A stretch of 64,000 nucleotides of DNA from an uncultured Clostridia bacterium (GTDB taxonomy: Bacteria > Bacillota > Clostridia > Christensenellales > Borkfalkiaceae): positions 3,927 to 67,926 of the forward strand of contig CANRHI010000001.1 of NCBI GenBank assembly GCA_947630365.1, in the 5' to 3' direction. The notes below the pieces were generated by a model. That model did not search any database, had not been told where the DNA came from, and saw nothing but the letters and a program-made list of their open reading frames with translations. A program made the position numbers and the translations under genes. Numbering within the stretch: position 1 is the first letter of the stretch; every line of letters starts with the position of its first letter. Shown here in pieces: positions 17,148 to 44,031 of this stretch.

Positions 17148-17998
17148 TTAGATAATTTGTGAATGAGTTCGGTATTGCACCGGGCTCATTCCATTTAGTT
17201 TGAGGGAGATCCTTGCGTTGTTGTGGTAATCGATGTATTCTTCGAGACAGCGGATGAATTCATCCGCTGTCTCGAACTTCTCACCGTAGAACATCTCTAC
17301 TTTGAGCCGTCCGAAAAAGTTCTCCATCGCACCGTTATCCATGCAGTTTCCCTTGCGGGACATGCTTTGGATGATATTGTGTTCTTTCAGCTGTCTTTGG
17401 CAGCTCTCATGTTGGTATTGCCACCCTTGGTCTGAATGGAAGATAGGGCGTGCTCCCTTCGGCAGCTTCTCAAATAATCCTTTGAGCATTTCTCTTATTT
17501 GTTCCATGTTCGGACTCTTTGAAATAGAATAGGCAATGATCTCTCTGTTGTATAAATCCATGACCGGAGAGAAATACACTTTCTCGTCACCGATATTGAA
17601 TTGGGTTATGTCGGTAGCCATCTTTTCGAACGGCTTCTCCGCGTGGAAGTCTCTCGCAAGAAGATCGTCCGCGATCTTTCCCACTTCTCCCTTGTAAGAA
17701 TGGTATTTCTCGTTCTTGCGCCGTTTCCCTTTCAAACAGAGGCTCTTCATGAGCTTATATACCGTCTTATGGTTCAGAACATAGCCTTTTGCTCTAAGCG
17801 AAAGCTCTATCCTGCGATATCCGTATCTGCCCTTGTTCTCTTGAAAGATCTTCGTGATTGCCGATTTCTCTTCGGCATACTTATCTTTTTCGCTTCGTTT
17901 GAGATGATAATAATATGTGCTGCGAGCGAGACCTGAAATCTTCAATAATATTTTCAGCGGAAATCTCTGCCTTAGTTCCAGAACTACTTGCGCTTTTT
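17148..17998 (-). CDS. IS3 transposase OrfB (rve/DDE integrase core), read in the -1 frame from the slippery site
   Basis: The -1 frame is open from AAAAAG (17993-17998) and reads KAQVVLELRQRFPLKILLKISGLARSTYYY... DDE motifs: ATDITQF, HSDQGWQY and NGAMENFFGRLK. The track starts it only at 17945, which is a TTG. Confidence 0.85.
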
Positions 17999-23289: not shown

Positions 23290-23860
23290 TCCGTTCTCTT
23301 GGGATCTCCTCTCATTCGCTCAATCCGACATTGAGCGCAAAGGGCCAAAGCAAATTGGGTGCGCTGCCGCAGGGAGACCCTGCTCCGCGCCGTGATTTGG
23401 AAGCAACCTCCCCCTGTATCCCCCTCCTTAAAAAGGAAGGGGATTCCATCTGCTCTCTCCTTGCGAAGGCGGGGATTTCGTCTGCGCTCTCCTTGCAAAG
23501 GAGGGGGATTTTGCTTATTTCATCCCCATCACCTTTGGGGGGCACCGCTATCGAATCCCCCTCCCCGCCAAATCGGGGAGGGGGACGCAGGGGGAGGGGC
23601 ACCGCAGCGTGAAGCCCTACCCTTCGGGGAAGGGGAGGGTGGCTGCCCTCGGGCAGACGGGTGGGGATGGGCGTGGGGGAAGCGCGAAAGGCAACCCCCA
23701 CCGCCCGCTTGCCCTAAAGCAGCTTTAGGGCAAATCCCCTTCCCCGTTTGCGGGGAGGCACCCGTAGGGCGTGCCTTGGCTGGGATAAAGGGGGAGGGGC
23801 TTCCGATCATGTCATACCGCCATGCCGAGCTTCTTTTGTATTCCAAGGGCGGCATGAACA
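23290..23860. repeat. Intergenic block of mosaic GC-rich hairpin repeats (copy C)
   Basis: It contains CCCCCTGTATCCCCCTCCTT (23410-29), AATCCCCCTCCCCGCCAAATCGGGGAGGGGGACGCAGGGGG, the 34-bp module at 23751-84, and an inverted copy (23828-53) of 12432-57. Confidence 0.9.
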
Positions 23861-23907: not shown

Positions 23908-25404
23908 TCAAACGGATCTTGTGAGCGTTTCGTACACCTTCACCATGGCGAAGGTGTCGAGCGCGCAGTATTTCAAAAGGTCGTGCTCTGCCTTTGCCCG
24001 CTGTTCGGCGGGCATATTTTTGAGCTTCGGGAAGAGCTCCTTTGCCTCGCTTCCGTTGTGGACGCCCTCCAATTTGTGATAGTCGAGCTCGGGGTCGTCG
24101 GGGAAGAGGGCAGGAAGAACGCTTTTGATGGAAAACGACCCGCCCATGGCACGGATATAATAGTATCCCTTTTGGAAGGGGACGAGCAGATCTTTGATGT
24201 TCTCCTCGATCTTGAGAAGATGCTCGGAGAGATCGGGGAAGATCGCCGCGAGCTCCTTGATGCGCCCGCATTCGAACCCCTTATTATAGACGAGCACGCA
24301 GACGTCGTCGGGAATGTCGGAAACAAGCCGCTCGGCAAGGGCACGCCTCGGGTCCTCCTCACTTCGCCCCAAAAATTCACGGTGTTCAAGCGTCCCGTTC
24401 GGCTCCCGCAAAATGTGCAGGGAATACTGCACGGGGATCTGTTGATAGGGCTTGGTGCCGACATATTGCGGAATGACGGGTTGCACCGACTCGAAATCGA
24501 GAAAATAGAGGGGATAGGTGAGCGTTTGCAAAAATTCCTCAATGCCCTTTTTGTCGATATGGGCGCCCTTGTCCTCGAGGGCATACTCCACCTGACGGCG
24601 GCGGAGCTCGTTGAGCTCGCTCCCATCCTTCAAGACGTCCTCAAAACCGCAGATGCCCCTTTGATACAGCGCAAGCTTTTTCTTGAAGGCAAGGTCGTAC
24701 AGTCCAAAGACGGACGGCGAAGGCAGATCCCGCGTACAATATCCGAAGAAGGCGCAGGGATAGGGCTTGTTGCACGCCATAGATAAATCGATCGTCGGCT
24801 CTTTCGCCGACGCCATGACCTTTTCCGCCTCCTTCAGGCTCTTTTCTACGTCGGCAAGCTCTTCCTCGACGAGGGGCGTGACCTCGGTGATCTTGAAATA
24901 TTTTTGAAGGTCGAGGACGCCGTCAAAGACATAGCTCGTATCGATCGTGACGAGGTAGACGTTTTTCACCCTCACGCCGCATTTTTCGAGGACATATTTT
25001 TGGAAAGAGGTATCGACGATATAGACGTGTTTGTCGGGCGAGGCGCTGCTCTTGACTTCATAGATATCGTAGCCGTCGCCGTTCTTTTTGAGAATATCGA
25101 CGGCGCAATACAGCCCTTGATGGCCGAAGGACGCTTCGCAGATGATTTCCCTTCCCTCGGCGAGACATTGCTTGGTGAGCTCTTTCATCCTCTCGAGGTC
25201 GAGGCTGCCGTCGGGCTTATACGAAGTCACTTCGACGTATTCGCCGAACAGCCCCATCGCAAGATCGCCCACTTCGTTGCCCGCCGCAAAGCGCGCCTGC
25301 GTCTCTTCGTCGACGACGCATTCCTCGGGCTTATACTTTTTGAGCCACGGAATTTTGGGACACTGCTTGAAATCGCAATACTTGGATTTGCTGAAATAGA
25401 ACAT
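23908..25404 (-). CDS. DUF2779-family protein (Cas4-like PD-(D/E)XK N-terminus plus RNase H/DnaQ-like C-terminus)
   Basis: ATG at 25404 after GGGAGA. N-terminus MFYFSKSKYCDFKQCPKIPWLKKY; also YEVKS, YPLYFLDFES, YNKGFECGRIKELA and YCALDTFAMV. Confidence 0.7.
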   Translation of the reverse strand: MFYFSKSKYCDFKQCPKIPWLKKYKPEECVVDEETQARFAAGNEVGDLAMGLFGEYVEVTSYKPDGSLDLERMKELTKQCLAEGREIICEASFGHQGLYCAVDILKKNGDGYDIYEVKSSASPDKHVYIVDTSFQKYVLEKCGVRVKNVYLVTIDTSYVFDGVLDLQKYFKITEVTPLVEEELADVEKSLKEAEKVMASAKEPTIDLSMACNKPYPCAFFGYCTRDLPSPSVFGLYDLAFKKKLALYQRGICGFEDVLKDGSELNELRRRQVEYALEDKGAHIDKKGIEEFLQTLTYPLYFLDFESVQPVIPQYVGTKPYQQIPVQYSLHILREPNGTLEHREFLGRSEEDPRRALAERLVSDIPDDVCVLVYNKGFECGRIKELAAIFPDLSEHLLKIEENIKDLLVPFQKGYYYIRAMGGSFSIKSVLPALFPDDPELDYHKLEGVHNGSEAKELFPKLKNMPAEQRAKAEHDLLKYCALDTFAMVKVYETLTRSV

Positions 25405-25421
25405 GATTTTTTCTCCCGTGT

Positions 25422-26555
25422 TTACTCTTCTTCGTCGTCCTCGGGCTCCTCGGGCATTGCGTCGAGGGAGTAGATATACTCTTCGGCCTCGGGATGGGCC
25501 TTGATCCAGTCGATCAATTTTTGCTTGTGTGCCACTTTCCAATCGTTGCTGAGATAGTATTCTTTCCCCTTGATCTTCAGCGGTGCGGCGTAATACCGCC
25601 TTCCGCCCTTTTCGGCGAGAACGGGCTCGGTGATCCCGAAAATCACCTTACTCTCCTCAATGGTCGTTAATTTCTCGATCTCCTCATCGGGGACAAGCCC
25701 GCTCTCCAACATATTCCTCAGCGCCGATTTGGCGATTTGTCCGACGAGGAGTGCGCCGTAGGCTGCCGCGTCGGGGACCGCAGCGGTGGGATTGGGAAGA
25801 GCGGAGATCGCGGCGCCCTTGCCCTTCTTCCCCGTTGTTCCCTTCCTACCCGTCCCTTTCGCGCTTACGGGCGGGAGAAAGTAACCGAGCAAGTTGAGCA
25901 ACTGATAGGCTCTCATGAAGAGTTCGGCGGTATCGTGTACCTTGCCGCTCACGATGCGGATGGGGTCGATGACTTCGGTGGAAAAGGCGTTGTTGCCGAT
26001 GATCCTAAAGGTGTAATTCAGTCCCGCCCTATGGAAAAAGTCGTTGAGGAAGTCGATGCGGGACGGCAACAGATTGTACACACCGGGGGAAATTGAGGGG
26101 GATGCGAAAACGATCTCCGCCTCTTCCGCTTCGAAGTATCCATACAGACTCAATGCCGTGCGGACACATTTTTCAACCACTTTGCGGTCAGAGACGTTGC
26201 CGCCGACGCCGTGATAGTTCAGTCCGTTTTCATGAAATGCGACGTCGACGGCATAGTACACGGGTTTACCTTCGCGCAGAGCGAAGCCGATGGCGTCGCA
26301 TTCTCCCTGCTTGATAACTTGATGGAATTTTTTCTCGAGAGCCGCTTTTGGGTCTTTCTCGGCATCGATGTCGAAAATGATTTGATGAAACTTGAATTCA
26401 AATTCCGTTCGGACGTCTTTGAACAGATCTTGCAGCTCCGCCACTCTCTTCAGCGTCCAAGCGGGAGAGGCTTTCCAATTATTTTGGACGATCAAGCACT
26501 CCTTCACATGCCGAAGCCACGAGTAAAACAGGGATTCCGCTATTTCAATTTTCAT
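25422..26555 (-). CDS. Hypothetical protein (possible restriction-endonuclease-like N-terminal domain) co-operonic with the DUF2779 gene
   Basis: 377 aa, ending 17 nt upstream of the DUF2779 start. It has E...GECDAIGF...YYAVDVAFHE acidic beta-strand motifs, a K/G-rich linker, a C-terminal RYYAAPLKIKGKEYYLSNDW module and an acidic tail. Confidence 0.6.
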   Translation of the reverse strand: MKIEIAESLFYSWLRHVKECLIVQNNWKASPAWTLKRVAELQDLFKDVRTEFEFKFHQIIFDIDAEKDPKAALEKKFHQVIKQGECDAIGFALREGKPVYYAVDVAFHENGLNYHGVGGNVSDRKVVEKCVRTALSLYGYFEAEEAEIVFASPSISPGVYNLLPSRIDFLNDFFHRAGLNYTFRIIGNNAFSTEVIDPIRIVSGKVHDTAELFMRAYQLLNLLGYFLPPVSAKGTGRKGTTGKKGKGAAISALPNPTAAVPDAAAYGALLVGQIAKSALRNMLESGLVPDEEIEKLTTIEESKVIFGITEPVLAEKGGRRYYAAPLKIKGKEYYLSNDWKVAHKQKLIDWIKAHPEAEEYIYSLDAMPEEPEDDEEE

Positions 26556-26582
26556 AAAATACCCTCCGTAAAATTCATTTTT

Positions 26583-26611
26583 ATTGTACTACGCAAATGT
26601 TTTTTCGTCAA
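26583..26611 (-). promoter_or_regulatory. Sigma-70-type promoter of the hypothetical/DUF2779 operon
   Basis: The minus strand reads TTGACG-17 nt-TACAAT, about 30 nt upstream of the ATG at 26555. Confidence 0.65.
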
Positions 26612-26654
26612 TATCTCTCTTGAAAATAGTACCGAAGGAACACACCCTCAAAGG

Positions 26655-27434
26655 CTATGTCTCTTGGATGTGAAGGTCGAAGAACCGCTTGAGGGCCGCG
26701 GCCTCGGGGTAGGTGATCTTCAGATTTTTCTGCAAAAATGCCGTCGTGATCTTCTCTTCGGGGTGACTGCGCACGAGCGAAAGGGCTGCGCTCCGAAGAT
26801 GGGCGGGGATGCGTCTTTTCGGGGCTTCGGTCGGCACTCGGTCGAGCGCATACATGAGCTCTTCTTCGCTCGCGCAGGCGGCGGCGACTTCCGAAAAAGG
26901 CGTGTCCCCCTTGAGAAGAACGACGTAGCGCTCGATATTTCGGGTGTACCGCGGATGGCGCAGGCGGCGGATCCCCCAGGTGATGTGCTCCTCGAGCTCG
27001 GTCGGGTAAATTTGAAGCTCTTCGCAGATCTCGTCGCAGTTTTTTCTCTCGCAGAAGAGCTTCAAAATGCACTCGCGCTCCATGCGTGGAAAGGCATTCA
27101 GGTTGTTTTTCACCCGTTCCTCCGCGCCCGCTTTGACGAGCAGCGGCCCGCCCAAGATCTCTTCGTAAAGATTTTGCGGCCATGCCTTTTCGCACATTCT
27201 CTTGCAATAGTTTTGGAAGGCGGGGATCTCCTCTTCGAACTTGCAAAGGCGCTCTTTCGCAATGTCGTAGAGCGCTTTCTTCTCCCTTTCGTCGCAGGGA
27301 AGCTCGTCGTAAGAGAGCGCGTAGAGGCGGGAGAGCTCTTCGCCCATTGCCTGCTCCCGCCGTCTGCAATAGTACTGCGCGCTCATGCACTCAAGCTCGC
27401 GTTCTCTCAGTTTCAAAGTAATTTCTTCGTTCAT
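26655..27434 (-). CDS. DNA-binding protein: sigma-70 region-4-like HTH plus C-terminal FtsK-gamma-like winged helix
   Basis: ATG at 27434 after AGGAGGA, overlapping the LRR gene stop (ATGA). ERECILKLFCERKNCDEICEELQIYPTELEEHITWGIRRL resembles sigma region 4. ITTAFLQKNLKITYPEAAALKRFFD resembles the FtsK gamma motif. Confidence 0.5.
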   Translation of the reverse strand: MNEEITLKLRERELECMSAQYYCRRREQAMGEELSRLYALSYDELPCDEREKKALYDIAKERLCKFEEEIPAFQNYCKRMCEKAWPQNLYEEILGGPLLVKAGAEERVKNNLNAFPRMERECILKLFCERKNCDEICEELQIYPTELEEHITWGIRRLRHPRYTRNIERYVVLLKGDTPFSEVAAACASEEELMYALDRVPTEAPKRRIPAHLRSAALSLVRSHPEEKITTAFLQKNLKITYPEAAALKRFFDLHIQET

Positions 27435-28297
27435 ACATTTCCTCCTCGATCTCTTCTCTTGCAGTTGAATTTGATCTTGTAGCCGTCGAGCCGGCCGCCC
27501 GCTTTGTCGATCTCGATTGCGTTCCATTCCTCTTCGGTGCCCCCGAAGAGAATGCAACCGTGGTCATCTTCATATTCGGTAAGCGGCGGAAACGCATTGC
27601 GGCCGATATATTTCACGGACTTCGGGACATAGAAGTCGCGCGGGAAGCAGTATTTGTATGTTTCTTCTTTGATGATGAGGACGCTCTCGGGCAGATCGCA
27701 CACGGATGCGACTTGGGAAAAGACGTTGCTCTCGATGACTTTAAGGTCTTTGGGAAGTTTGGTGATGGAAAGCTCGGTGCAGCCCGCGAACGCCGCTTCG
27801 CCGATGGAGACGACGGAGTCGGGGATCTCCAATTCACGGAGAGAGGAACAGCCCGTGAACGCCGCCTCGCCGATGGTCTTTAACGTTTCGGGCAGGCGGA
27901 CGAGCTCGAGAGACGTACAGCCCGAAAAGGCGCCGCTGCCGATGGAGAGGAGCCCTTGCCCGAAGGCGCTGTAGACCAAAACAGCTTTGAGATTCGGGCA
28001 GCCCGCGAATGCCCCGTCGAGAATTTGGGCTGCGCCGAAGATCAAGATGCCTTCGAGAGCCTCATTTCCCGCAAAGGCGAAACTGCCGATGGTATCGCAA
28101 TCGGTGATGCGGAGATGTTTGCATTTGCCCCGATAGCGCATGAGGACATTTTTCCACTCCTCAAGATCGGGCCAAAGACCCGCATGGCCGACTTGGACGT
28201 AATCGCGGACGGCGCACTCGGCGAGATCGTCCGTCGAAAGGTCCCACGACGCGGTGCACTTTTTGGCGCGTTCTTCGATGTTTCTTTTTTCGATCAT
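27431..28297 (-). CDS. Cytoplasmic BspA-type leucine-rich-repeat (LRR_5) protein
   Basis: ATG at 28297 after AAGGAGAAT. No signal peptide. Repeated ...IG..AF.GC..L..(I/V/L).(I/L)P... units (FAGNEAL, FAGCPNL, FSGCTSL, FTGCSSL, FAGCTEL). Confidence 0.75.
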   Translation of the reverse strand: MIEKRNIEERAKKCTASWDLSTDDLAECAVRDYVQVGHAGLWPDLEEWKNVLMRYRGKCKHLRITDCDTIGSFAFAGNEALEGILIFGAAQILDGAFAGCPNLKAVLVYSAFGQGLLSIGSGAFSGCTSLELVRLPETLKTIGEAAFTGCSSLRELEIPDSVVSIGEAAFAGCTELSITKLPKDLKVIESNVFSQVASVCDLPESVLIIKEETYKYCFPRDFYVPKSVKYIGRNAFPPLTEYEDDHGCILFGGTEEEWNAIEIDKAGGRLDGYKIKFNCKRRDRGGNV

Positions 28298-28426
28298 ATC
28301 ATTCTCCTTTTTGATTTTTTCTCGATTTTGCACTTCGGTTTTTTGTGTGTTCTCTCTTTGGATACCCCTTTTTTCGCGGTAGCTTTCACGATTTTTGCAA
28401 TGCGCCCGCCCGCGAACGTCGCACGC

Positions 28427-28435
28427 AGTATAGCA
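28427..28435 (-). promoter_or_regulatory. Extended -10 element TGCTATACT upstream of the LRR operon
   Basis: The minus strand reads TATATGCTATACTGCG, the same 9-mer class as in the 50-bp array and at 29198-29206. Confidence 0.45.
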
Positions 28436-28534
28436 TATAGGCGTAAAAAAATGGGACGTCAAGTCCCATATGTCTGAAATACAAAATTGCAGATGTGAAA
28501 AATTTATCTCCGCGCCGCCCTTTCCCCAAACGTT

Positions 28535-29131
28535 CTACTGCTCAAATTCTTCGGGATAGACGCCGATATACCTTCCATCTCCGAGGAGCGCGATTACTTT
28601 TGCTCCCCCTCGGAGATAAAAGTAGAAATCTTCCACGATCGCAAGATAGCGGTAGAAGGTCGTGCGGGCGATGTGAAATTCGGCACAAAACTTGTTTCTT
28701 TCGACGCCGTCCTCCAATCTGTCGTGCAGGGCGAGAAGCGCGAGATATTTGCGGTTTGAGGGAGTGTCGTGATAGGTGTTGCCGTCCTCGCTGTAGATCC
28801 CGTAGTATTCCCGCATGATCGCAAGCAGCCTGCGGAAATTGGAGTGACTTATCTGCCGCATTTTGCAAAAGGACTCGGGATCCACATGGTCGGGGTCTCC
28901 GTCCGCTTCGAGAGCGAAAAAGAAGAGATTGCGTATTTTTTCGATCGTCGGGGTCTCTTTGATGTGCGCGCGCTCCCCTGCGCGCGTATAGTAAATGTTT
29001 GTTTCGGTGCGATAGGAGAAATCCTCGCCATCGGATATGTCCCAACGGTTGTCCCGATCGTCGCAAACCACATCATGATCTTTGGAGCATTTTTGCTTGG
29101 GATCCGCTTTCAAATACCTTCTCTTTCCCAT
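28535..29131 (-). CDS. Hypothetical protein with two HTH-like segments (putative regulator)
   Basis: 198 aa. QISHSNFRRLLAIMREYY and FHIARTTFYRYLAIVEDFY resemble HTH recognition helices. It is divergent from the repeat array. Confidence 0.5.
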   Translation of the reverse strand: MGKRRYLKADPKQKCSKDHDVVCDDRDNRWDISDGEDFSYRTETNIYYTRAGERAHIKETPTIEKIRNLFFFALEADGDPDHVDPESFCKMRQISHSNFRRLLAIMREYYGIYSEDGNTYHDTPSNRKYLALLALHDRLEDGVERNKFCAEFHIARTTFYRYLAIVEDFYFYLRGGAKVIALLGDGRYIGVYPEEFEQ

Positions 29132-29197
29132 ATCCCTTCTACCGTTTCACCGTTTGACCGTTTTACCGCTATCCTTTCCGACGCGGTTTTCGCAAGT

Positions 29198-29206
29198 AGT
29201 ATAGCA
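29198..29206 (-). promoter_or_regulatory. Extended -10 element TGCTATACT upstream of the HTH gene
   Basis: The minus strand reads TTTTATGCTATACTACTTG, about 65 nt upstream of the ATG at 29131. Confidence 0.45.
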
Positions 29207-29276
29207 TAAAACAAATCGGAATACAAGTGCAGAAATCGACGAAGCCATTCGGGGGGGGGTAGACAGCACGAAACGC

Positions 29277-29650
29277 GTGTGCTATAATGGAGGCGGAAAT
29301 TCGTCCCGGCGCAAAACGGGGGGTGCATGTGCTATAATGGGGGCGCAAATTCGTCCCGGCGCGAAATGGGGAGGGCGTGTGCTATACTGGGAGCGCAAAT
29401 TCGTCACGGCGCAAAACGGGGAGCGTGTGTGCTATAATGGAGGCGCAAATTCGTCCCGGCGCGAAATGGGGGGTGCGTGTGCTATAATGGGGGCGGAAAC
29501 TCGTCCTGACGCAAAACGGGGAGCGCATGTGCTATAATGGGGGCGGAAATTCGTCCTGCCGCGAAATGGGGAGTGCGTGTGCTATAATAGGGGCGGAAAT
29601 TCGTCCTGCCGCGAAATGGGGATGATGTGTGCTATAATGGGGGCGCAACA
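29277..29650 (+). repeat. Exact 50-bp-period tandem array (7 full units plus a partial eighth), each unit carrying GTGTGCTATAATGG (extended -10 consensus)
   Basis: GCTATAATGG (GCTATACTGG at 29381, GCTATAATAG at 29581) starts at 29281, 29331, 29381, 29431, 29481, 29531, 29581 and 29631. Unit consensus: GCTATAATGGGGGCG(G/C)AAATTCGTCC(C/T)G(G/C)CGC(A/G)AAA(C/T)GGGGAG(T/C)GCGTGT. The period is not a multiple of 3. The array ends 49 nt before the nuclease ATG. Confidence 0.95.
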
Positions 29651-29698
29651 AAAGGAAACGTTCGGCGCAAGCCGTTCAAAAAATACAAGGAGGAACAT

Positions 29699-31051
29699 AT
29701 GAAACACAAAACGGCAACTTTAAGTCAACTGCAAAGTTTTGCTCCCGATTTCTCCGAGCTCAAAGCGCAACTGGGGAAATTCAATTTCTTTCGGAGCGTT
29801 CGGATGCAGACGATGGAGACGCGGCACAGCAATGTTCTTGCTTTCCTGTTGGACAGCAAAGAAACACACCGGCTCGGCAATGCTTTCGCACAGGCATTTT
29901 TCTCCGCAGTTTTTGCAAATGCGGGAAAAGAAATCGCCGAACGAATGCAACTGGGTGGAGAGAGGGAAGTAGGCGACTTCTTTCAAAAAGGAGGCTTCCG
30001 CTTCCTCATTGAAAGAGAACACCCGTTTATCGACGAAAACGGAAAAAGACGGTTTATCGACCTTTTATTGATTGCGGAGGACCCGACCTATCCCGTGCTC
30101 ATCTGCATTGAGAATAAGGTTATGTCGTTTCAGCACGACGGTCAATTAGAGGCGTATGAAAAGCATGTTCTGAGTTTGAAAAAATATGAGAATTACAAGA
30201 AGCTGTTTTTGTATCTAACGCCGACGAAGGAAATTGTCGGGGGAGATCAATGGATCAAGATTTCCTATGAGCCTGTCCTTCAAGCGTTGGATGAAACGTT
30301 AATGAAGTACCCGCAAGTCGACAACGAAGTAAAAATCTATCTTACACATTATCAAGAAATTATCAGGAGGGATATTATGAACAACGACCCTATTATCAGA
30401 CAACTTTGCGCGAAATTGTATAATCCGGAGAGAGAAGTTTATCAAACAATTTTCAAGTACATGCTCGGGAGCGAGAAAGAGGCGCTGACCGGTGCAATCG
30501 TCGAAAAACTTGATGCTTTGCGGAATATCGGTGAGATTGAGCTTATCTCCTCTTCAACAAAATCGAATCATACCGAGTTCAAATTTGTGACGAAAAGTTT
30601 GTTGGAGATACTTCCCTACGAGGAATCGCAAAAGAAAACGCGAGTATGGCAGTCCCAAAGCAGAATCGTGTATGAGATTGTCGTTACGAACAGTGACGGA
30701 TTCCCGGACAAGATCACGTTCTGTGCCGTTCTTGTCACAGGGGACAATGCGATCGATAATCAATTCACGCCTCAAATTATAAATATATGCAATGCTCATC
30801 GCAAAGAATTCCGTTTGGGGGATAAACCCATAGAGCGTACCGAGAAACAGAAACACAATAAGCTTCTCACCAAAATATACAACGAAGGCAACGGTTTATC
30901 CGTGCCCGACTCGATTACCGACGGTGAATTCCTTCGGGATTTGGAAAAAGGCATAGATGCCTTTATCAATGATCTAAAGGAGCATCTGGAAACCGTGCTT
31001 AAAAACGAGATAACGAGCACCTCTATGCCGAGCACCCCCGCGCAGCCCTAA
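29699..31051 (+). CDS. PD-(D/E)XK nuclease family protein (PDDEXK_4-like)
   Basis: ATG at 29699 after AAGGAGGA. The N-terminal motif FNFFRSVRMQTMETRHSNVLAFLLDSKETHRLGNAF is typical of this family. Catalytic-core-like RFIDLLLIAED...ICIENKV (D...ExK). Confidence 0.7.
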   Translation: MKHKTATLSQLQSFAPDFSELKAQLGKFNFFRSVRMQTMETRHSNVLAFLLDSKETHRLGNAFAQAFFSAVFANAGKEIAERMQLGGEREVGDFFQKGGFRFLIEREHPFIDENGKRRFIDLLLIAEDPTYPVLICIENKVMSFQHDGQLEAYEKHVLSLKKYENYKKLFLYLTPTKEIVGGDQWIKISYEPVLQALDETLMKYPQVDNEVKIYLTHYQEIIRRDIMNNDPIIRQLCAKLYNPEREVYQTIFKYMLGSEKEALTGAIVEKLDALRNIGEIELISSSTKSNHTEFKFVTKSLLEILPYEESQKKTRVWQSQSRIVYEIVVTNSDGFPDKITFCAVLVTGDNAIDNQFTPQIINICNAHRKEFRLGDKPIERTEKQKHNKLLTKIYNEGNGLSVPDSITDGEFLRDLEKGIDAFINDLKEHLETVLKNEITSTSMPSTPAQP

Positions 31052-31072
31052 CTCCAACCAAGGGAGAACACT

Positions 31073-32023
31073 ATGCCGAAAACATTTTCAGAAGAAATCT
31101 GCTCTGTGGTCGCGGAGGAGAAGGGGTCGCTTACGTCGAAGATCCTCTACGAGATGTGCGACGAGCGGCGCTACCCGTGGGGCGGGGAAGGGCAACTGAA
31201 AGACAAGCTCCGCATCGTCTGCGGGGTGTACGGGCTCATCCTCCGCGAAAACTATCTTTGCTATGCCGCGAAGAACGGGTGGTCGCGCCACAGACGCGTC
31301 GACGTCGAGACGGCGATCGCGGACATGGTTATGGGAAATTCCGCCTACGGTCCTTTCGTGGAAAGACTTGCGGCGTGCAAAGAGAAGTATGCCTTCGACG
31401 GCGGCGCGGGCGATATGGCGCTTCTTCAAAAAAGCGTCGGCCTTGTCTTTGAGCTGAACGATCTCCTCTGCAATGCGGTCAGCGCGTATGACGGGCTCTA
31501 CCGTCAGCCCAAGCGGAACAGGGGCAACTTCTATGCGCTCTCCGCGCGCATGTTGCACCTTCATCGGCCCGAAGCGGTGTTCCCTTACGGAAAGGGCATC
31601 CGCGACGGCATGATGCACTTCCGCAACCCCGTCGGATGTCGGCTCGGAGAAGCCGTCTTGGAGGGCGCGGACAAAGACGAGATACGGGCGGCGTTTTACG
31701 AGGCGTTTACGGGGCTCGGCGCGCTTGCCGAAGGGAAGCCCGATCTCTCGCCCGAATGGATGTATCTTTCGGCGACGGCGTTTTCGTATGCGCTCTGCCG
31801 CTACGTTTCCTCGCACGGCGGTTCGCCCGAGGGGCTCTTCCCGACTGCCCTCTCCGCCGCGGTCGTCGAAAAACTTCAACGGGTACTGACAGAAGAAGAG
31901 ATCGAAAAGATCGCACAGCAGATCCAACGCGATATGCCCATCGAAGAGGCGCGGCTGTACTGCCGCGACGCGGTGGAATTCGAGCAGGTCTTTATGGCGC
32001 GCTGTGCCCAAGACCCAAAATAA
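31073..32023 (+). CDS. Hypothetical protein
   Basis: 316 aa with coding-like composition, 21 nt after the nuclease stop. No motif recognised. Confidence 0.6.
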   Translation: MPKTFSEEICSVVAEEKGSLTSKILYEMCDERRYPWGGEGQLKDKLRIVCGVYGLILRENYLCYAAKNGWSRHRRVDVETAIADMVMGNSAYGPFVERLAACKEKYAFDGGAGDMALLQKSVGLVFELNDLLCNAVSAYDGLYRQPKRNRGNFYALSARMLHLHRPEAVFPYGKGIRDGMMHFRNPVGCRLGEAVLEGADKDEIRAAFYEAFTGLGALAEGKPDLSPEWMYLSATAFSYALCRYVSSHGGSPEGLFPTALSAAVVEKLQRVLTEEEIEKIAQQIQRDMPIEEARLYCRDAVEFEQVFMARCAQDPK

Positions 32024-32024
32024 T

Positions 32025-33134
32025 ATGGACTTCACAAAATTTCTCAACTCAAAGGATATTGCAACCCATCTCCGCCGTATCCGCTATGAATTCACGCCCG
32101 AACAGGCAATGTATGTCATCCATGCGGCGGCGGAGGCCCCTCTCCCCGAGCGGCACGCCGCCTATGAGGAGCTCATCGAGGCGTACCCCGACCACGCCCT
32201 GCGCGAGCGGCGGCAGGGGGTGTTCAAAAATCAGACGGTCGCTTCCTTCCTCCGCACCTATATGGAGCGGGAGAACGCGCTTCTTGCGGAATTCAAGCGC
32301 GACGGAGACGACGCCGTCTGCGTTTACGATTACTTTTCCAAGGAAGACGACGCTTGGTTTCAGGACGGGTACGGCCACCACTCTGTGTATCGCAATTTTT
32401 CCGAGGCCATGGACGACGTGCAATCGGAAAATGCGGACGGGAATATCGCAAAGATTACCGTCACGAAGCAATATTTTTCGGGCAGAATCATCGAGGCGAC
32501 CCTGCTTCCCGACGGCACGTGTCTGAAATTGGACGGGATAAACGGCGAACGGGATGAGGCGTTCCTGCATGCCTTCGATTGGATGTGGGTCAGCATTCCC
32601 ACGCCCTTCAAGTACGGCGACATCCTCGCACCCGTCCGGCAAAACAGGTGGGACCCCGGCACAACAGACGGCTCCGTCAAGGGGATGATCGTCCTCACGG
32701 ATATGGCAACTTGGGGCAGCAAAGAGCTCAAAAAGAACGGCTTCCGCAACGCCAAGACGTCAAATTTTGCTCGCAAGGAGCAAAATTTTGCGGTCCGCGA
32801 CAGGCTCATCGAAAAACACGGGGAATACGGCGACGAGACGGATATGCTCCTCTGCGGCTACTCTCTCGACGGAAGCGATATCTGCTACGACCATACAGAC
32901 CAAAGCTATCTGAACTACGAGCGCTTTCGCGGCGAACTCAAAGGGCATAACAAGATGCTCCGCTCCCTCTCCAATTTCCTCAAGGGGGAAATCGACTTGG
33001 GGCTCATGCTCAGAGCGCACCGCATCATCTGCGCCGAGGAGGAGTGCCGTGAGAAGAGGTCCTTCCTTGACCTCTATACCGACGAGGGCCTAACTCTCGC
33101 GGGACTTCAAAAACGCAATCAACAAAATCAATAA
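32025..33134 (+). CDS. Hypothetical protein
   Basis: The ATG at 32025 lies 1 nt after the upstream stop (an alternative GTG at 32004 would overlap). 369 aa. No motif recognised. Confidence 0.6.
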   Translation: MDFTKFLNSKDIATHLRRIRYEFTPEQAMYVIHAAAEAPLPERHAAYEELIEAYPDHALRERRQGVFKNQTVASFLRTYMERENALLAEFKRDGDDAVCVYDYFSKEDDAWFQDGYGHHSVYRNFSEAMDDVQSENADGNIAKITVTKQYFSGRIIEATLLPDGTCLKLDGINGERDEAFLHAFDWMWVSIPTPFKYGDILAPVRQNRWDPGTTDGSVKGMIVLTDMATWGSKELKKNGFRNAKTSNFARKEQNFAVRDRLIEKHGEYGDETDMLLCGYSLDGSDICYDHTDQSYLNYERFRGELKGHNKMLRSLSNFLKGEIDLGLMLRAHRIICAEEECREKRSFLDLYTDEGLTLAGLQKRNQQNQ

Positions 33135-33149: not shown

Positions 33150-33689
33150 ATGTACGATCCGAGAAGCGAAGAAGTTTTGAAACTCAAAGCGCGCGCCCTC
33201 TGCGGGGAATATCTCCCGAAAGAAGCCGATTCTCGGGGCAACGATCGGGACTTTACGCGGCTCCCCAAGTCTGCCCTCGAAAAAGCGCACAGCGTCAATG
33301 CGGGGAATCGTGTGGACATGACCGAAGAGGAAGATGCCCTGTGGGGCGACCTTCAAGATGCGATCGATGCGCAATTTTTCGATCTGCTCACGGCGTTCCC
33401 GGAGTATTTTACGGGCGATCCCGATGATGAATTTTTGACCTTGGGCAAGGGACTTACCACGCGGACGGGGGTCGCGGAAAAGGTCGAGCGGCAGCGCGCG
33501 CTCGCAACGCCCTCCGAGGCATGGCCGAAGGAGCGGCAAGACGCATACCGCGCACGCATGGCATATCTTTTTGCAAAGCGGCGCATCGACGGGTTAAAGC
33601 GCGAGATCGAGTGGTCGGAGAAATATTTGCGCGCCATGAAAGCCTACATTCTCGAAATGTATCCCGACTGCCTCGGTGAGGATTTTTAA
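33150..33689 (+). CDS. Hypothetical protein
   Basis: 179 aa, with an AAGGAGAAAAAG RBS. Helical and acidic. No motif recognised. Confidence 0.6.
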   Translation: MYDPRSEEVLKLKARALCGEYLPKEADSRGNDRDFTRLPKSALEKAHSVNAGNRVDMTEEEDALWGDLQDAIDAQFFDLLTAFPEYFTGDPDDEFLTLGKGLTTRTGVAEKVERQRALATPSEAWPKERQDAYRARMAYLFAKRRIDGLKREIEWSEKYLRAMKAYILEMYPDCLGEDF

Positions 33690-33693
33690 CACC

Positions 33694-34584
33694 ATGAAAC
33701 GCCGTGTGTTCGCCTACGTTGAGGACAATTTCCAAAAGAACAAGCCCGATAGGGTGCTCGCCATAGACGAGACGGGCGAGCGTTTGTTCTGCTATGAAGT
33801 GGACAACCGCGGGAAGGGAGAAAGCTACGAGGAGCAATTCGTAAACGACAAAGCGCATTCGCCCGCAGCCGTTGCCTTTGCGGCGTTCGAGCGCTTCTGT
33901 AAGGAGGAGTGCGGCATAAAGGATTGCAACGACGAGGTGATCTTTTCGGGGGGAAAGAATATTCCGCCGAAAACCCTCGCTGATTATTTCGAATTTCGGT
34001 TGGGCGGCGCGGACTGGGTGTATGTGTGGGAGATCGGGTTCGAGTACCGCTTCGAGACGGCGCATCTCGAACATCCCATCGGCTTCAAAGAATTCCGCAA
34101 GGTCCATACAGAGGGGCTCACAGAGCCCTACGCCACCCGCGCGCTCTATGCAAAGTACAGAGAACACATTCATAAAGATGCCTACACGGAAGAGGAGCTC
34201 GACCGCATGGAGCAAGCCGTGTTCTCCCGCCTCGATATGGCTTACCGCCGTCGGCGCAGCAGGTCGGATCCGAGTATCTATATCGCCGAAACCTGCGCCG
34301 CGATCTACCGAGGCGACCAAGCACGTTTTCGTCGCGTTGTGGAAAGGATCGTCGCCGATCACGCAAGAAGGCGTTCCAAAAGGAAACGTTGGGTGCTGCA
34401 ATACATCCTCGAGACGATCGCCGACAGCATCTATTGCGACGGAGAGATCGACCTCGCTTCGCTCGATGAGGAAGAAAAAAAGCCGCCCCTCGAGCGGAAG
34501 GAGTATGCGATCTTCGCGGGGCTTTCCCCCGATGCGCTTCCCCTCGTAAAAGAATCGATCGAGGAATATGTAAATTGGAAATAA
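33694..34584 (+). CDS. Hypothetical protein
   Basis: The ATG at 33694 lies 4 nt after the upstream stop (alternative GTG at 33676). 296 aa, with an Arg-rich segment RRRRSRSD / RRRSKRKR. Confidence 0.6.
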   Translation: MKRRVFAYVEDNFQKNKPDRVLAIDETGERLFCYEVDNRGKGESYEEQFVNDKAHSPAAVAFAAFERFCKEECGIKDCNDEVIFSGGKNIPPKTLADYFEFRLGGADWVYVWEIGFEYRFETAHLEHPIGFKEFRKVHTEGLTEPYATRALYAKYREHIHKDAYTEEELDRMEQAVFSRLDMAYRRRRSRSDPSIYIAETCAAIYRGDQARFRRVVERIVADHARRRSKRKRWVLQYILETIADSIYCDGEIDLASLDEEEKKPPLERKEYAIFAGLSPDALPLVKESIEEYVNWK

Positions 34585-34587
34585 ACT

Positions 34588-35067
34588 ATGGACTCGCGCA
34601 TTTTGTTTTTGGATTACGACGGCGTCGTCAACACGCCGATGTGGAACGAGAGGGGCACAAAGGTCTCCTACGGCTTTCCCGAGGACGGGAAAGTCAACAA
34701 CTTTCAGGCGGTGCAGTGGGTCTCGCAGTTTTGCCAGAAGTGCAAATTCGATATCGTCGTCACGAGCTCCTGGCGGGAAGAGAGGAATTATCGGGAATGT
34801 TTGACGGAGGGCGGCTTGCGCGGGAATATCGCCATCGCGGGCGCGCTTCCCCTCGACGAAACCAAATCGCGCGGGGACCTCATCCGCGCCTATCTTCTTT
34901 CGCACCCCGAGATCAAGTATTACATCATCGCGGACGATGAGGAGGACCTTCTTCCCGAACAGCTTCCGCACCTCATCAAAACGAACGCCTGCTACGGCTT
35001 TTTGGAGCCCGAATACAAACGCTGCGTCGCACTGTATATGAAGTTTCAGAGCGGGGTGAAAGAGTAA
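34588..35067 (+). CDS. HAD-superfamily phosphatase-like protein (HAD_SAK 'Swiss-army-knife RNA repair' type)
   Basis: Motif I FLDYDGVVN, motif II VVTSSWR, SRGDLIRAYL, and motif IV-like YIIADDEEDL. 159 aa, starting 3 nt after the upstream stop. Confidence 0.6.
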   Translation: MDSRILFLDYDGVVNTPMWNERGTKVSYGFPEDGKVNNFQAVQWVSQFCQKCKFDIVVTSSWREERNYRECLTEGGLRGNIAIAGALPLDETKSRGDLIRAYLLSHPEIKYYIIADDEEDLLPEQLPHLIKTNACYGFLEPEYKRCVALYMKFQSGVKE

Positions 35068-35174: not shown

Positions 35175-35203
35175 TTGATTTTCGGGGGCGTATCGGGTAT
35201 AAT
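35175..35203 (+). promoter_or_regulatory. Sigma-70-type promoter of the DUF5054-like gene
   Basis: TTGATT (35175-80), a 17-nt spacer, then TATAAT (35198-203). Confidence 0.6.
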
Positions 35204-35240
35204 CATATCAAGAATGGCATCGGGTATGATCGAATCGCGC

Positions 35241-35273
35241 GCAACCATGTCAACGTGAGCAACCATGTCAACG
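35241..35273 (+). promoter_or_regulatory. Two perfect 15-bp direct repeats, GCAACCATGTCAACG (candidate operator), between the promoter and the start codon
   Basis: Copies at 35241-55 and 35259-73 (18-bp phasing). A partial third copy, GATCGTGTCAAA, follows. Confidence 0.6.
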
Positions 35274-35319
35274 CGTGCGATCGTGTCAAATAGAGTGCAG
35301 AAAATTTTCGGAGGGGCAA

Positions 35320-37482
35320 ATGAAGATCATAACGGTATTCAAGACGCATTTCGATATCGGGTTTACCGAGCTTTCGTCGGAGGTCGTGGCGCGGTACAGC
35401 GGGAAGATGATAAAGGACGTCATCAAGACGTGCAACGATACCTATCCGCTGGGCGAAAAGCTGTGCTACAAGTGGACGATGTCCGCATGGCCGCTCGTCC
35501 AAATGCTCGAGCACGCGGAGGAAGGGGACAGGAAGGCGGCGGAAGAGCTCATCGCGCGCGGTCAGCTCCTTTGGCACGCACTGCCCTTCACGACGCACAC
35601 CGAGTGCTGCGGGGTGGAGGACTTTGTGCGCGGCTTCGACTTTGCGAGGGAGCTTTGCAAGCGGTACCATAAGCCCTTCCCCATTGCGGCGAAGATGACG
35701 GACGTCCCCGGTCACACGGGGTTTCTCGTGGAGGCCTTGGCGAAGGCGGGCGTAAAGTTTTTGCACCTCGGATGCAATCCCGCGTGCACGCCGCCCGAGG
35801 TCCCCATGCTCTTTTGGCTGGAAAGCAAAGACGGCGGCCGCGTCCTCACCTTCTACAACAAAACCTACGGCTCGAGCGTGCTTCCGCCCAAAAACTGGCC
35901 GTATCCCGTCTGGTTCAACATGAATCAGACCAACGACAACATCGGCCCGCAGGATGCGCGCGTCATCGAGGAGCTGGTCGCGGCGGCGGGGGAGAACGAG
36001 CTCGTCATCGGAAGTTTGGACGACGTGTACCGCGAGCTTCTTCCCCATTTGGGGGAGGAAGTGCCCGTAGTTAAGAGCGAGCTGGCGGATGCGTGGATCC
36101 ACGGCGTGGGGACGTACCCCAAGGAGGTGGGCGAGCTCCGCCGTGTGCGCGAGCGGCTTGCGGCGGCCTCCAAGGTGCAGGCGAGGGAGAAAGTCTTTGA
36201 CGCGCGCCTTGAGAAGCTCTTCCAAAGCGCGTATGCCGATCTGCTCCTCTTCTCCGAGCACACATGGGGGTTGGACGTAAAGACGCACCTCGGCGCGCCC
36301 AAATACAAGAAGGCGGATTTTACCGCCGAGCGGGGCGACCCGCGCTACAAAAAGTTGGAGCTCTCGTGGGACGAGCAGAGGGACAGAGTCCGCCGCGCCG
36401 AGAAGGCTGCGGAGGAGATCGAGTCCATCCTCGGCATCGCGGGCGAAAAGGCGAGGCCTTCCGCGGGGGAAGGCGCAAACGCCGCGCTCTCCCTTCGGGC
36501 GGACAAGAAGGGGAACGTGGAAATTCTCTCGAATGGGGAAAGGCTCCTCAAGATCTGCGGCGCGGAGTACCGCATTGCGGGCTCGGAGGAAATGTGCCGT
36601 TTCTTGCGGGCGTATGTGCGCAGGTTCCCCGTTTGGGCGATCTTCGACTACGGCAGGGTGGAGTATCCCGAGTGCGAGGGCGAGCTCTTCCTCCCCGTCT
36701 CGGCGGAGGTGGAAAAGCGGGCGGACGGGCTCACCGTGACCCATTTCTACGACGAGCGCGCGGCGAAGGAATTCGGCTGGGCGGAGAAAACGGTCACGAC
36801 CTATAAAGTGGAAAACGGCCGCGTTCGCGTGCGCTTCGAGGTGGAGGCGTGCGCCACGCCCTATGCGGAGAGCGCGAGCCTCAAATTCCTCCCCGCGGAG
36901 AAGGGCATTTCCATCAACAAGCTCGGCGGCATGGTGGACCCCGCAAAGGATGTTGCGGTAGACGCCAACCATGTGGCGTTTTGCACCGAGCGCTTCGTCG
37001 ACCTCAACGGGGATACCCTCGCGGTCCTTTCCAAGGACGCCGCCCTCGTCTCGATGGGCGAGGACCTGCTCTTCAAATTCCACAGAAGGAACGAGGCGCG
37101 CGGGAAGGCGTTCTACTTCAACCTCTTCAACACCATGTGGGGGACGAATTTCCCGCAGTGGATCGAGGGCAAGCTCGCGTATGAATTCGAGATCGTCCCG
37201 CACCCCGCGGGGGACCGCAGCCTTCTCTACGAGGCAGACGACGCCGCGCTCGAATTGTGCGGTGCGGCGCTCGAGAGCGTGCGCGTGGAAGGCGGAGAGG
37301 CGCTGTACCGCATCCGCGAGATAAACGGCAAGGCGGCGACCGCCACCTTTGCCGCGAAAGAGAGCGCGTGGAAGGCGACCGATTGGTTTGGCGAACACGG
37401 CACACGGTTGCCCGTTTCGGAGGGAAGAGTGCAGCTCGCCCTGCGCCCCTACGAGATCGTCACCGTCCGCCCGATGAAGTAA
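35320..37482 (+). CDS. DUF5054 / GH38-N-terminal-like glycoside hydrolase
   Basis: ATG at 35320 after GGAGGGG. The N-terminus KIITVFKTHFDIGFT is typical of DUF5054 (GH38-like metal-site strand). 720 aa. Confidence 0.6.
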   Translation: MKIITVFKTHFDIGFTELSSEVVARYSGKMIKDVIKTCNDTYPLGEKLCYKWTMSAWPLVQMLEHAEEGDRKAAEELIARGQLLWHALPFTTHTECCGVEDFVRGFDFARELCKRYHKPFPIAAKMTDVPGHTGFLVEALAKAGVKFLHLGCNPACTPPEVPMLFWLESKDGGRVLTFYNKTYGSSVLPPKNWPYPVWFNMNQTNDNIGPQDARVIEELVAAAGENELVIGSLDDVYRELLPHLGEEVPVVKSELADAWIHGVGTYPKEVGELRRVRERLAAASKVQAREKVFDARLEKLFQSAYADLLLFSEHTWGLDVKTHLGAPKYKKADFTAERGDPRYKKLELSWDEQRDRVRRAEKAAEEIESILGIAGEKARPSAGEGANAALSLRADKKGNVEILSNGERLLKICGAEYRIAGSEEMCRFLRAYVRRFPVWAIFDYGRVEYPECEGELFLPVSAEVEKRADGLTVTHFYDERAAKEFGWAEKTVTTYKVENGRVRVRFEVEACATPYAESASLKFLPAEKGISINKLGGMVDPAKDVAVDANHVAFCTERFVDLNGDTLAVLSKDAALVSMGEDLLFKFHRRNEARGKAFYFNLFNTMWGTNFPQWIEGKLAYEFEIVPHPAGDRSLLYEADDAALELCGAALESVRVEGGEALYRIREINGKAATATFAAKESAWKATDWFGEHGTRLPVSEGRVQLALRPYEIVTVRPMK

Positions 37483-37907: not shown

Positions 37908-37925
37908 AGGAAACGGGTGGGGGAA

Positions 37926-38834
37926 ATGTTGAACAAAAAGAACAATAAGACCAGCGAAAAGAACGAAGTGCTCACCGAGCAGCGTCTCTACGGCAGGGTA
38001 CACAGGTTCATCGACCTGAATGTGATCACCTGCGGGCACGAGCAGTGCGCGCCCACAAAGTTTGTGGACGTAGCGAAAAAGGACGTGTACACCATTCACG
38101 TCATCGAGAGCGGAAAGGGCTACATCGAATACAACGGCAACAAGGTCGCCCTCTCCACCAACGACGTGTTTTTCATCTATCCCGGGGAAATGGTCTCCTA
38201 CTACCCCGATCCCAAGTCGCCGTGGTCGTACTTTTGGATGACGTTCGAAGGCGTTCAGGCAGACGAGCTGGTGGGAAGGATCGACGCAACGCGCGAGCGG
38301 CCGTACCTAAAGAACGACTTCAACCGCAAGCTCCTCGGGTATTTCGCCGCCGCGATGGAGGCGTTCGAGCGGCACGGGAAGATCGTCGTCGAATGCGTCG
38401 GGTATCTCTACATTATCCTCGGCGCGCTTGCGGGAAGGGACCGCGAGGCGCTCCCCATTCAACAGCGCTATGTGAAGGAAGCGCTCACGTTCATTTATTA
38501 CAACTTCAATTTCGATATCACCGTAAAGGATATCGCCAAGAATTTACACATTTCACCCAATTATTTGAGCTCGCTGTTCCAAAGCGAGGTCGGCATGACG
38601 ACAAAGCAATACCTCGTAAAGACGAGAATGGAGCGCGCCCTTCGCCACATGCAGCAAAACCATGAGGTGAAGATAAAGGACGTCGCCGCCATGGTCGGCT
38701 ATTCGGACCCGCTGTATTTTTCCAAGGTCTTCCGAAGCTACTATGGCAAGACGCCCAAGGAGGCGCTCGAGGCCATGGAACAGCTCGAAACGGTGCGGGG
38801 AAACGAGCCTCCCAAGCCCGAGGGGAGCGATTGA
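37926..38834 (+). CDS. AraC-family transcriptional regulator (cupin sensor plus HTH_18)
   Basis: N-terminal cupin-like region (FFIYPGEMVSYYPD) and a C-terminal dual HTH (ISPNYLSSLFQSEVGMT..., VGYSDPLYFSKVFR). The ATG at 37926 is preferred over the GTG at 37917. Confidence 0.85.
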   Translation: MLNKKNNKTSEKNEVLTEQRLYGRVHRFIDLNVITCGHEQCAPTKFVDVAKKDVYTIHVIESGKGYIEYNGNKVALSTNDVFFIYPGEMVSYYPDPKSPWSYFWMTFEGVQADELVGRIDATRERPYLKNDFNRKLLGYFAAAMEAFERHGKIVVECVGYLYIILGALAGRDREALPIQQRYVKEALTFIYYNFNFDITVKDIAKNLHISPNYLSSLFQSEVGMTTKQYLVKTRMERALRHMQQNHEVKIKDVAAMVGYSDPLYFSKVFRSYYGKTPKEALEAMEQLETVRGNEPPKPEGSD

Positions 38835-42125: not shown

Positions 42126-42149
42126 GCCCTTTCGCGGCGTCGGAGCGCA

Positions 42150-43118: not shown

Positions 43119-43127
43119 GGAGGAGCC

Positions 43128-44009: not shown

Positions 44010-44031
44010 ATCTGAATTTAGGAGAAAAATC

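Follow-up and report, generated by a model that had tools for sequence, protein, structure and literature searches.

A probable promoter tandem repeat upstream of a PDC-S26-type nuclease operon in an uncultured gut Clostridia bacterium

Natural promoter tandem repeats have been described in Mycobacterium tuberculosis at dop, lpdA-glpD2 and cysG-efpA, where the repeats are 54-57 bp long and variable in copy number, and four copies of the lpdA repeat lead to 12.5-fold expression compared with one copy (PMC12817950). Using synthetic tandem core-tac promoters (MCPtacs) of 41 bp in 1-10 copies, a stepwise rise to about 4.4-fold was obtained at five copies, followed by a plateau (PMC3293061). Short repeats are also found in toxin-antitoxin (TA) loci of type III (toxIN, cptIN and tenpIN), in which repeats of 31-62 nt and a palindromic terminator precede the gene of a toxin of 70-288 aa (PMC3401426). 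Here we analysed a 64-kb stretch of contig CANRHI010000001.1 from the metagenome-assembled genome (MAG) of an uncultured gut Clostridia bacterium (the window, i.e. the whole stretch of 64,000 nucleotides), which carries a 50-bp tandem array directly 5' of an operon headed by a PD-(D/E)XK nuclease gene. We consider it probable that the array is a functional promoter array, i.e. a promoter tandem repeat of the variable number tandem repeat (VNTR) kind, and the comparisons described below establish, at the level of sequence, its anatomy, the paralogy between unit and leader, the linkage to the nuclease cassette and copy numbers of 2, 6 and 8 in related loci.

Compared with the described systems, the window array belongs to a known kind, the promoter tandem repeats, and is not a new RNA antitoxin. 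First, it shares several features with the M. tuberculosis repeats (PMC12817950): repeats of about 50-57 bp lie head-to-tail directly 5' of a transcription unit with a promoter in each, the copy number varies among related genomes, the proposed role is copy-number tuning of expression, and a G homopolymer is present, at the cysG repeat in the one case and as a G9 tract in the other. The window array differs in its host phylum, in having eight copies rather than the 1-4 mentioned there, in its older and more diverged units, in its TRTGnTATAAT elements without a -35 box and in its target, a candidate defence nuclease operon; its effect on expression is a prediction. The first-pass annotation of this DNA, which was made by a model from the letters, had named no described system with such a layout, but the 54-57-bp mycobacterial repeats of variable copy number are a precedent. 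Second, the MCPtacs are likewise co-oriented short promoter units and can serve as a functional model for eight 50-bp units, although they are engineered and identical, contain -35 and -10 elements in every copy and were tested in E. coli (PMC3293061), whereas in the window a -35 box is present only in unit 1. Third, the nuclease matches the PADLOC models of PDC-S26 over the full length (6e-60), but PDC-S26 is a single-gene, candidate system, and the window nuclease heads a six-gene operon and recurs near DUF2779 (Cas4-like) genes. A repeat array is no part of the PDC-S26 definition.

Tandem Repeats Finder (TRF) reported a single array in the window, at 29275-29645, with a period of 50, 7.4 copies, 86% matches, 0% indels and a score of 502, and TGCTATA recurs in strict phase at 50-bp steps (29280, 29330 and so on to 29630). 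The strict 50-bp phase of the first-pass annotation was confirmed in this way, but the array is not exact as it had stated, because any two units agree at only 39-46 of 50 positions (78-92% identity). Its eight units correspond to seven full 50-bp units (W1-W7) and a partial eighth, which merges into the unique leader of the operon. The 14-mer GTGTGCTATAATGG, which had been listed in eight copies from 29281 to 29631, is exact in four of the eight phased units (29277, 29427, 29477 and 29627), and the listed coordinates were about 4 nt off. Similarly, the perfect extended -10 element TGCTATAAT had been assigned to every unit; it lies on the operon strand in seven of the eight, and unit 3 carries TGCTATACT instead. 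The reported alternation of GCAAAACGGGG and GCGAAATGGGG holds across units 1-6, but unit 7 has the even form again. Amplification of a 100-bp dimer, which had been proposed from this alternation, was not supported, since the whole-unit identity at lag 2 (43.4) is in substance no higher than at lag 1 (42.8) and only two linked sites are involved. The unit core GGGGCGSAAATTCGTCCYG occurs seven times in the window against 0.16 expected, always inside the array.

Each full unit consists of (G/A)TGTGCTATAAT (ending in TACT in unit 3), a G-rich discriminator, GCG(G/C)AAATTCGTCC and a degenerate fossil of a ribosome binding site (RBS) and ATG. The units adjoin directly and are homologous over all 50 bp, and neither the array register nor the alignment revealed unique spacers between them; without such spacers an array of clustered regularly interspaced short palindromic repeats (CRISPR) is ruled out, as the first-pass annotation had concluded. 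It was also right that the array is non-coding: a period of 50 is not divisible by 3, and for the 86-aa open reading frame (ORF) spanning the array there is no homologue among 5.8 billion proteins, which argues that the array is not coding. A -35 box was found by the promoter scan in unit 1 only (TAGACA at 29260-29265, a 17-nt spacer and TATAAT; 11/12 matches). All units are co-oriented, and there is no plus-strand terminator between the array and the ATG (29699); in the wider region of 28300-29900 no plus-strand terminator-like site was found, and the only hairpin, CGGC-GCAA-GCCG in the leader, is followed by TTCAAAAAA, with no T run. The distance from the end of the last -10 element (29638) to the RBS AAGGAGG at 29687 is 49 nt, in agreement with the value noted before. 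The G9 tract that had been reported ahead of the array was confirmed as well (Table 1). The plus strand of the array contains 144 G and 72 C; a G-quadruplex or R-loop idea was considered for this G-rich strand, but the G-run of the unit tail is missing in a related array from rabbit gut (L001, described below). The last unit contains a GTG (29627) in the reading frame of the nuclease, which would allow a 24-codon N-terminal extension; judging from the related loci L001 and L136, in which this frame is stopped, it is probably coincidental.

Nine sets of related sequences were compared, all of them from short-read metagenome assemblies. L010 is a second assembly of the window sequence, and its contig begins inside unit 7, as is expected where a real repeat breaks an assembly. 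In L001, a rabbit-gut Clostridia MAG, six units with spacings of 48, 47, 48, 49 and 20 bp are followed by a leader like that of the window, a nuclease remnant of about 71 codons and the HAD gene, the last gene of the operon. In blastn, L001 and the window are homologous only over the array with the nuclease N-terminus, at about 80%, and over the HAD gene, at 85%, and therefore the array travels with the cassette and not with its neighbours. At L001 6001-6260, a deletion has fused the nuclease gene, at about codon 71, with the sequence immediately 5' of the HAD_SAK_2 gene; from the alignment, this implies a 4.6-kb internal deletion between unrelated flanks, with the promoter array left driving a remnant. 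Three further loci from three sequencing runs (L136, L137 and L138) encode a nuclease in the 90%-identity cluster of the window protein, with a cassette nucleotide identity of 85-88%. Here, only two promoters are present, 49 bp apart, of which P1 has the TAGACA, 17 nt and TATAAT arrangement and P2 has TGTGCTATAAT; the pair sits 3' of a same-strand gene of the leucine-rich repeat (LRR) type. The TAGACA...TATAAT element of the window P1 is kept in these three loci, the last unit of the window (unit 8) has its counterpart in L001 and L136, and a shorter G run (GAGGGA) is found in L136 at the place equivalent to the G9 tract.

In more distant homologues, no repeats were found. For the 77% identical nuclease of L009, no unit was detected within the 68 nt of upstream sequence available, and the 36-50% homologues (L005, L006 and L008) have no array. 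In L007 (58%), the nuclease lies directly 3' of an LRR gene, and the hairpin leader is kept with no promoter there. Loci with homologues (79-85% identity) of the helix-turn-helix (HTH) protein encoded divergently from the array (L131-L135) have no array either. Matches to the hidden Markov model (HMM) of the unit were limited to the window, L010 and L001 among the sequences scanned, which did not contain L136-138. The unit core pattern had no match in metagenome or viral contigs, the leader pattern had none in viral contigs, and blastn of the array against phage and plasmid collections gave no match. Taken by copy number, the orthologous cassettes have 2 (L136-138), 6 (L001) and 8 (window) units, and the nuclease homologues of 77% identity or less have 0. 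The search of homologous nuclease loci for similar arrays, which the first-pass annotation had recommended, was thus successful for the close relatives with six and two units, but not at or below 77% identity. It should be noted that the 2-, 6- and 8-unit states belong to different species-level lineages with about 12-20% nucleotide divergence.

Within the unit, constraint is concentrated on the promoter motif. All eight units contain TRTGnTATAAT with at most one mismatch on the plus strand, which is the operon strand. When 11 units from two genomes (window and L001) were aligned, the most conserved block was TGTGCTATAAT, with 1 deviation in 121 cells compared with 79 in 429 in the rest of the unit, and 10 of its 11 columns are invariant compared with 15 of 39 outside (Fisher p = 0.005). 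We take this block to be the Gram-positive sigma-A -16 TRTG motif together with the extended consensus -10, followed by a G-rich discriminator. In the whole window, TRTGNTATAAT (at most one mismatch) occurs 13 times against 0.95 expected, eight of these in the array; the sites outside include ones 5' of neighbouring genes, where they are single, and the HTH-homologue loci of related genomes also have one copy of a promoter of the TRTGnTATAAT type. A second block 3' of the -10, GCG.AA(A)TTCGTCC, is well conserved between the window and L001. From the alignments, this block is most simply a relic of the ancestral leader.

Sequence comparison shows the internal unit to be a compressed version of the promoter, 5' untranslated region (UTR), RBS and start codon of the operon itself. 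The unit tails AAAAGAGGAACTTATG in L136 and AAATGAGGAATCTATG in L001 match the true RBS-ATG sequences AAAGGAGGAACTTATG and AAAGGAGGAATATATG, respectively, and at the unit junction ATG is directly followed by TGCTATAAT; the window has the RBS fossil in the decayed form AAAYGGGGRGNGCRTG. The leader can be aligned with the middle part of the unit once internal deletions are allowed, and the score of the unit-leader alignment was reached by 0 of 300 shuffles in each of three genomes. In alignments, the leader itself is conserved in L001, L136 and L007, and in L007 it is a plain intergenic spacer 3' of the LRR gene. At L136 433-627 (also in L137 and L138), the 3' end of the upstream LRR gene and the leader hairpin (GACGAAACTTAA AGAAA.CGTTCGGCGCAA.CCGTT) are duplicated and flank the promoter pair, and an 8-codon mini-ORF (MCYNRDET) begins after the second promoter and terminates at the fossil stop codon. 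On the sequence, this duplication with its mini-ORF is a trace of promoter origin by duplication.

Based on these features, we propose that a promoter-leader segment of about 50 bp was duplicated head-to-tail, through slippage or unequal recombination, to give a series of eight sigma-A promoters with consensus -16/-10 elements, which follow each other at 50-bp steps and are all directed into the PDC-S26-type nuclease operon. The repeats are co-oriented, head-to-tail and directly 5' of the operon with a promoter in each unit, and their copy number differs between related genomes (2, 6 and 8 in species-level lineages), as in promoter VNTRs. From the motif, we infer that transcription also starts in the internal units, which would act as extended -10 promoters. 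Mutual occlusion does not affect start sites separated by more than 35 bp (PMC8830795), and because the 50-bp spacing exceeds this reported threshold of about 35 bp, neighbouring promoters could be occupied simultaneously without occluding each other, with interference only via polymerase collisions. Transcription of the operon would then rise with the unit number up to a plateau, and the copy number could be an evolvable, possibly phase-variable expression setting of a candidate defence operon. An amplifiable expression dial had been one of the options of the first-pass annotation, and it fits, so far as sequence can tell, with the 2, 6 and 8 units in orthologous cassettes and with a unit that copies promoter and leader.

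Several points weigh against this proposal. The activity of internal units lacking a -35 box is predicted from their consensus, and the GCG.AA(A)TTCGTCC block, which is conserved too, is accounted for solely as a leader relic. The 2-, 6- and 8-unit states occur in genomes diverged by about 12-20%, i.e. they are differences between lineages. The window array, with a divergence of about 14% between its units, is not the product of a recent amplification. Most of the operon is deleted in L001 and the array is still there, so that an array can outlive its presumed purpose. In addition, unit number and order could be mis-assembled, given the short-read metagenome assemblies.

If the internal units fire, the array would be a natural, non-mycobacterial example of expression tuning via promoter copy number, in which an evolutionary series of 0, then 2, 6 and 8 promoters can be read before orthologous nuclease cassettes, and in which the origin of the unit is visible from the fossil RBS/ATG inside each copy. 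The series suggests that, in gut Clostridia, selection has been changing on the dosage of an operon for a candidate defence nuclease (PDC-S26) and its partners. Two practical points also follow: repeats 5' of nuclease genes should not be called type III antitoxins before the terminator, the conservation in homologues and the origin of the unit have been checked, and short-read assemblies break, and possibly miscount, arrays of this kind.

The alternative that deserves most attention is a neutral by-product of slippage, in which one promoter (unit 1 or the last) matters and the copy number has no regulatory effect. The divergence between units (8-22%), the drift of spacing in L001, the persistence of the L001 array next to a decayed operon and the RBS/ATG fossils, which would be passively inherited sequence with no present role, are all in keeping with it. 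However, the -16/-10 block has stayed near-invariant while the rest of the unit drifted (1/121 vs 79/429), which is unexpected if the internal promoters are unconstrained, and arrays were expanded or maintained in two lineages about 20% diverged. On this balance we regard neutrality as unlikely.

An operator or iteron array, in which an HTH, operon-encoded or nucleoid protein binds GCG.AA(A)TTCGTCC and is titrated or cooperatively loaded, appears quite improbable. It would give a role to the conserved second block 3' of the -10 in the window and L001, and the array lies in a divergent promoter region adjoining a gene with a weak HTH_7 match, which the first-pass annotation had put forward as the protein titrated by iterons. 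However, this gene is a member of a different conserved operon (HTH, LRR, ..., DUF2779), its five homologous loci (L131-L135) have a single promoter and no array, and conversely no HTH gene is present in the sequence recovered for L001 and L136-138, which do have the array or promoter pair; the HTH protein was accordingly rejected as partner of the array on synteny. The similarity between the HTH promoter and the unit past the -10 is not significant either (53/300 shuffles), the block centre is shifted by 1 nt between genomes (GGAAATTCG vs GGAATTCG), and the block is explained as a leader relic.

It is still more doubtful that the array, apart from adding promoters, acts as a transcription-coupled sensor or buffer of the defence operon, or as a repeat RNA restraining the nuclease in a type III-like manner with a new toxin class. 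In the sensor version, the expression or activity of the nuclease would be tied to the state of the host RNA polymerase, either by the eight sigma-A -10/discriminator elements, of very high affinity, in the non-template strand or by the long repeat leader RNA that these encode, and the system would respond to phage takeover of transcription.

Least probable is a repeat RNA proper, the ToxI-like option of the first-pass annotation, in which a multi-repeat precursor is transcribed from unit 1 and units of about 50 nt act as antitoxin or regulator of the PD-(D/E)XK nuclease. As in the type III TA loci (PMC3401426), a promoter in the window is followed by a tandem array and then by a defence-associated nuclease gene: the only promoter with a -35 box precedes unit 1, as in a toxIN-like layout, the repeats and a nuclease of a candidate defence family follow, and the unit length falls inside the 31-62 nt span of known antitoxin repeats (PMC3401426). 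However, the terminator that the type III criteria demand between repeats and gene (PMC3401426) is lacking here, and the 450-aa PD-(D/E)XK protein is no ToxN-like RNase, being unrelated to ToxN, CptN and TenpN and longer than the 70-288 aa of these toxins. Conservation of the protein family does not extend to the repeats, which are absent from homologues of 36-77% identity, and only one internal unit is present in those of 90% identity. An RNA structure is not supported: an Rfam scan of 28000-31000 with E up to 1 gave no match, and the fold of the array transcript is no more stable than that of shuffled sequences (z = -0.29 in the window, -0.71 in L001). No compensatory change occurs in the small recurring hairpin (columns 16-22 with 27-33), three of its pairs varying by disruption only. 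The covariation earlier proposed for the G16/C29 pair (columns 22-35) is not convincing, as CG occurs in 3, GC in 2 and no pair in 6 of only 11 related units, and the second proposed helix (25-28 with 37-40) is broken in L001. Finally, every unit contains a consensus promoter, and it is this motif, not a helix, that is the best-conserved part of what is a degraded copy of the 5' UTR.

Table 1 Features of the array, the nuclease operon and the divergent gene in the window
Feature	Position	Strand	Description	Basis
G9 homopolymer	29251-29259	+	directly 5' of the -35 box of the first promoter	sequence
Distal full promoter P1	29260-29288	+	TAGACA, 17 nt, TG-extended TATAAT	promoter scan, 11/12 matches
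Seven full units W1-W7	29275-29624	+		TRF, register, alignments, unit HMM, paralogy to leader
Partial unit 8	29625-29648	+	proximal promoter, TGTGCTATAAT at 29628-29638	register; nhmmer partial match 29627-29648
Unique 5' leader	29639-29698	+	hairpin CGGC-GCAA-GCCG (29663-29674), RBS AAGGAGG (29687-29693)	sequence
PD-(D/E)XK nuclease gene	29699-31051	+	450 aa, first gene of the operon	Pfam PDDEXK_4 8e-23
Operon genes 2-5	31073-32023, 32004-33134, 33150-33689, 33676-34584	+	no family match	family profile searches
Operon gene 6	34588-35067	+	HAD_SAK_2, phosphatase-like	family match
Divergent gene	28535-29131	-	198 aa, weak HTH_7 match	Pfam
Promoter of the divergent gene	29198-29208	-	TATGCTATACT	motif scan

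The operon downstream of the array contains six tightly packed genes with the nuclease at the head (Table 1). By profile and sequence comparison, the first gene product is a PDDEXK_4/PDC-S26-type nuclease, which agrees with its earlier assignment as a PD-(D/E)XK nuclease: it matches PDLC04972 of PADLOC PDC-S26 at 6.4e-60 over residues 1-436, and D121, E138, N139 and K140 are invariant in 25 homologues. The AlphaFold2 model is confident (predicted local distance difference test, pLDDT, 85) but gave weak Foldseek matches in the PDB, to the R2 restriction-like endonuclease domain, Can2 and BamHI, and it adds nothing past the PD-(D/E)XK assignment. The L005 operon contains homologues of genes 2 and 3, and the HAD gene is 90% identical in L001. 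It was also observed that genes for DUF2779 and the PDDEXK_4 nuclease are repeatedly found together with homologues of 31073-32023 and 32004-33134 (L005 1032-11746, L006 and L008; in the window 23908-25542 and 29699-33134), and that in L005 these genes are in one operon with a WYL regulator, an RNA 2'-phosphotransferase (PTS_2-RNA) and a sigma70_r4 protein. The gene content of this recurring set, together with HAD_SAK_2, suggests an uncharacterised multi-gene system of the conflict or RNA-repair type, beyond single-gene PDC-S26.

The divergent HTH gene opens a separate conserved operon (window 23908-29131, minus strand), which encodes the HTH protein, a BspA-type LRR_5 protein, three unknown proteins and DUF2779 (Cas4-like). 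Over window 29131-23929, synteny with about 81% nucleotide identity was seen in one or more related rabbit-gut MAGs (L131 8001-13705), with partial synteny in two others (L133 and L134), and the flanks of the operon are different in every genome. In L131, L133 and L134, the homology ends at the HTH start codon, upstream of which a single promoter and no repeat are present. Sequence searches of the PDB with the HTH protein and the product of gene 5 gave nothing useful.

Periodic-pattern scans for extended -10 arrays of about 50 bp gave three matches in viral contigs and at least 120 in metagenome contigs. A general class of such arrays was rejected, because the matches are heterogeneous, mostly AT-rich and unrelated in sequence, with no consistent relation to a downstream ORF; at such database size, TGNTATAAT in AT-rich repeats may arise by chance. 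For example, three viral contigs have AT-rich arrays with TGCTATAAT in each unit that are unrelated in sequence to the window array (L002 6780-6946, 24 bp x 7; L004 1843-1971, 24 bp x 5.4; L003 2379-2521, 51 bp x 2.8). Unrelated 48-53-bp tandem arrays occur in the metagenome contigs L034 (5457-5714), L041 (5-190) and L058 (5053-5242), in each unit of which TGnTATAAT precedes a GC hairpin (CACCCCTTCGGGGT or CACCTCTTCGAGGT) with a T run behind it; the units resemble promoter-plus-terminator mini-units.

Elsewhere in the window, direct repeats were found at 35190-35290, where CAACCATGTCAAC occurs twice and is followed by a GTGTCAA variant (TRF 18 bp x 2.2), just 3' of a GGGTATAAT box. These repeats lie 5' of, or overlap, the start of a DUF5054 gene (35275-37482), with an AraC-type regulator at 37917-38834, and have an operator-like look. 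An IS3-family transposase (rve, HTH_21) is encoded at 17148-17945 on the minus strand, and both the GC content and that at third codon positions (GC3) are lower across much of about 16-45 kb than in the flanks; the composition of this part suggests a variable, horizontally acquired region. Further arrays in the window include a 30/60/90-bp array at 41789-41990, which overlaps a long minus-strand ORF (39288-44324, 1678 aa), a GC-rich array of 30-33 bp at 10578-10700 and a 32-bp x 2.7 array at 23424-23510.

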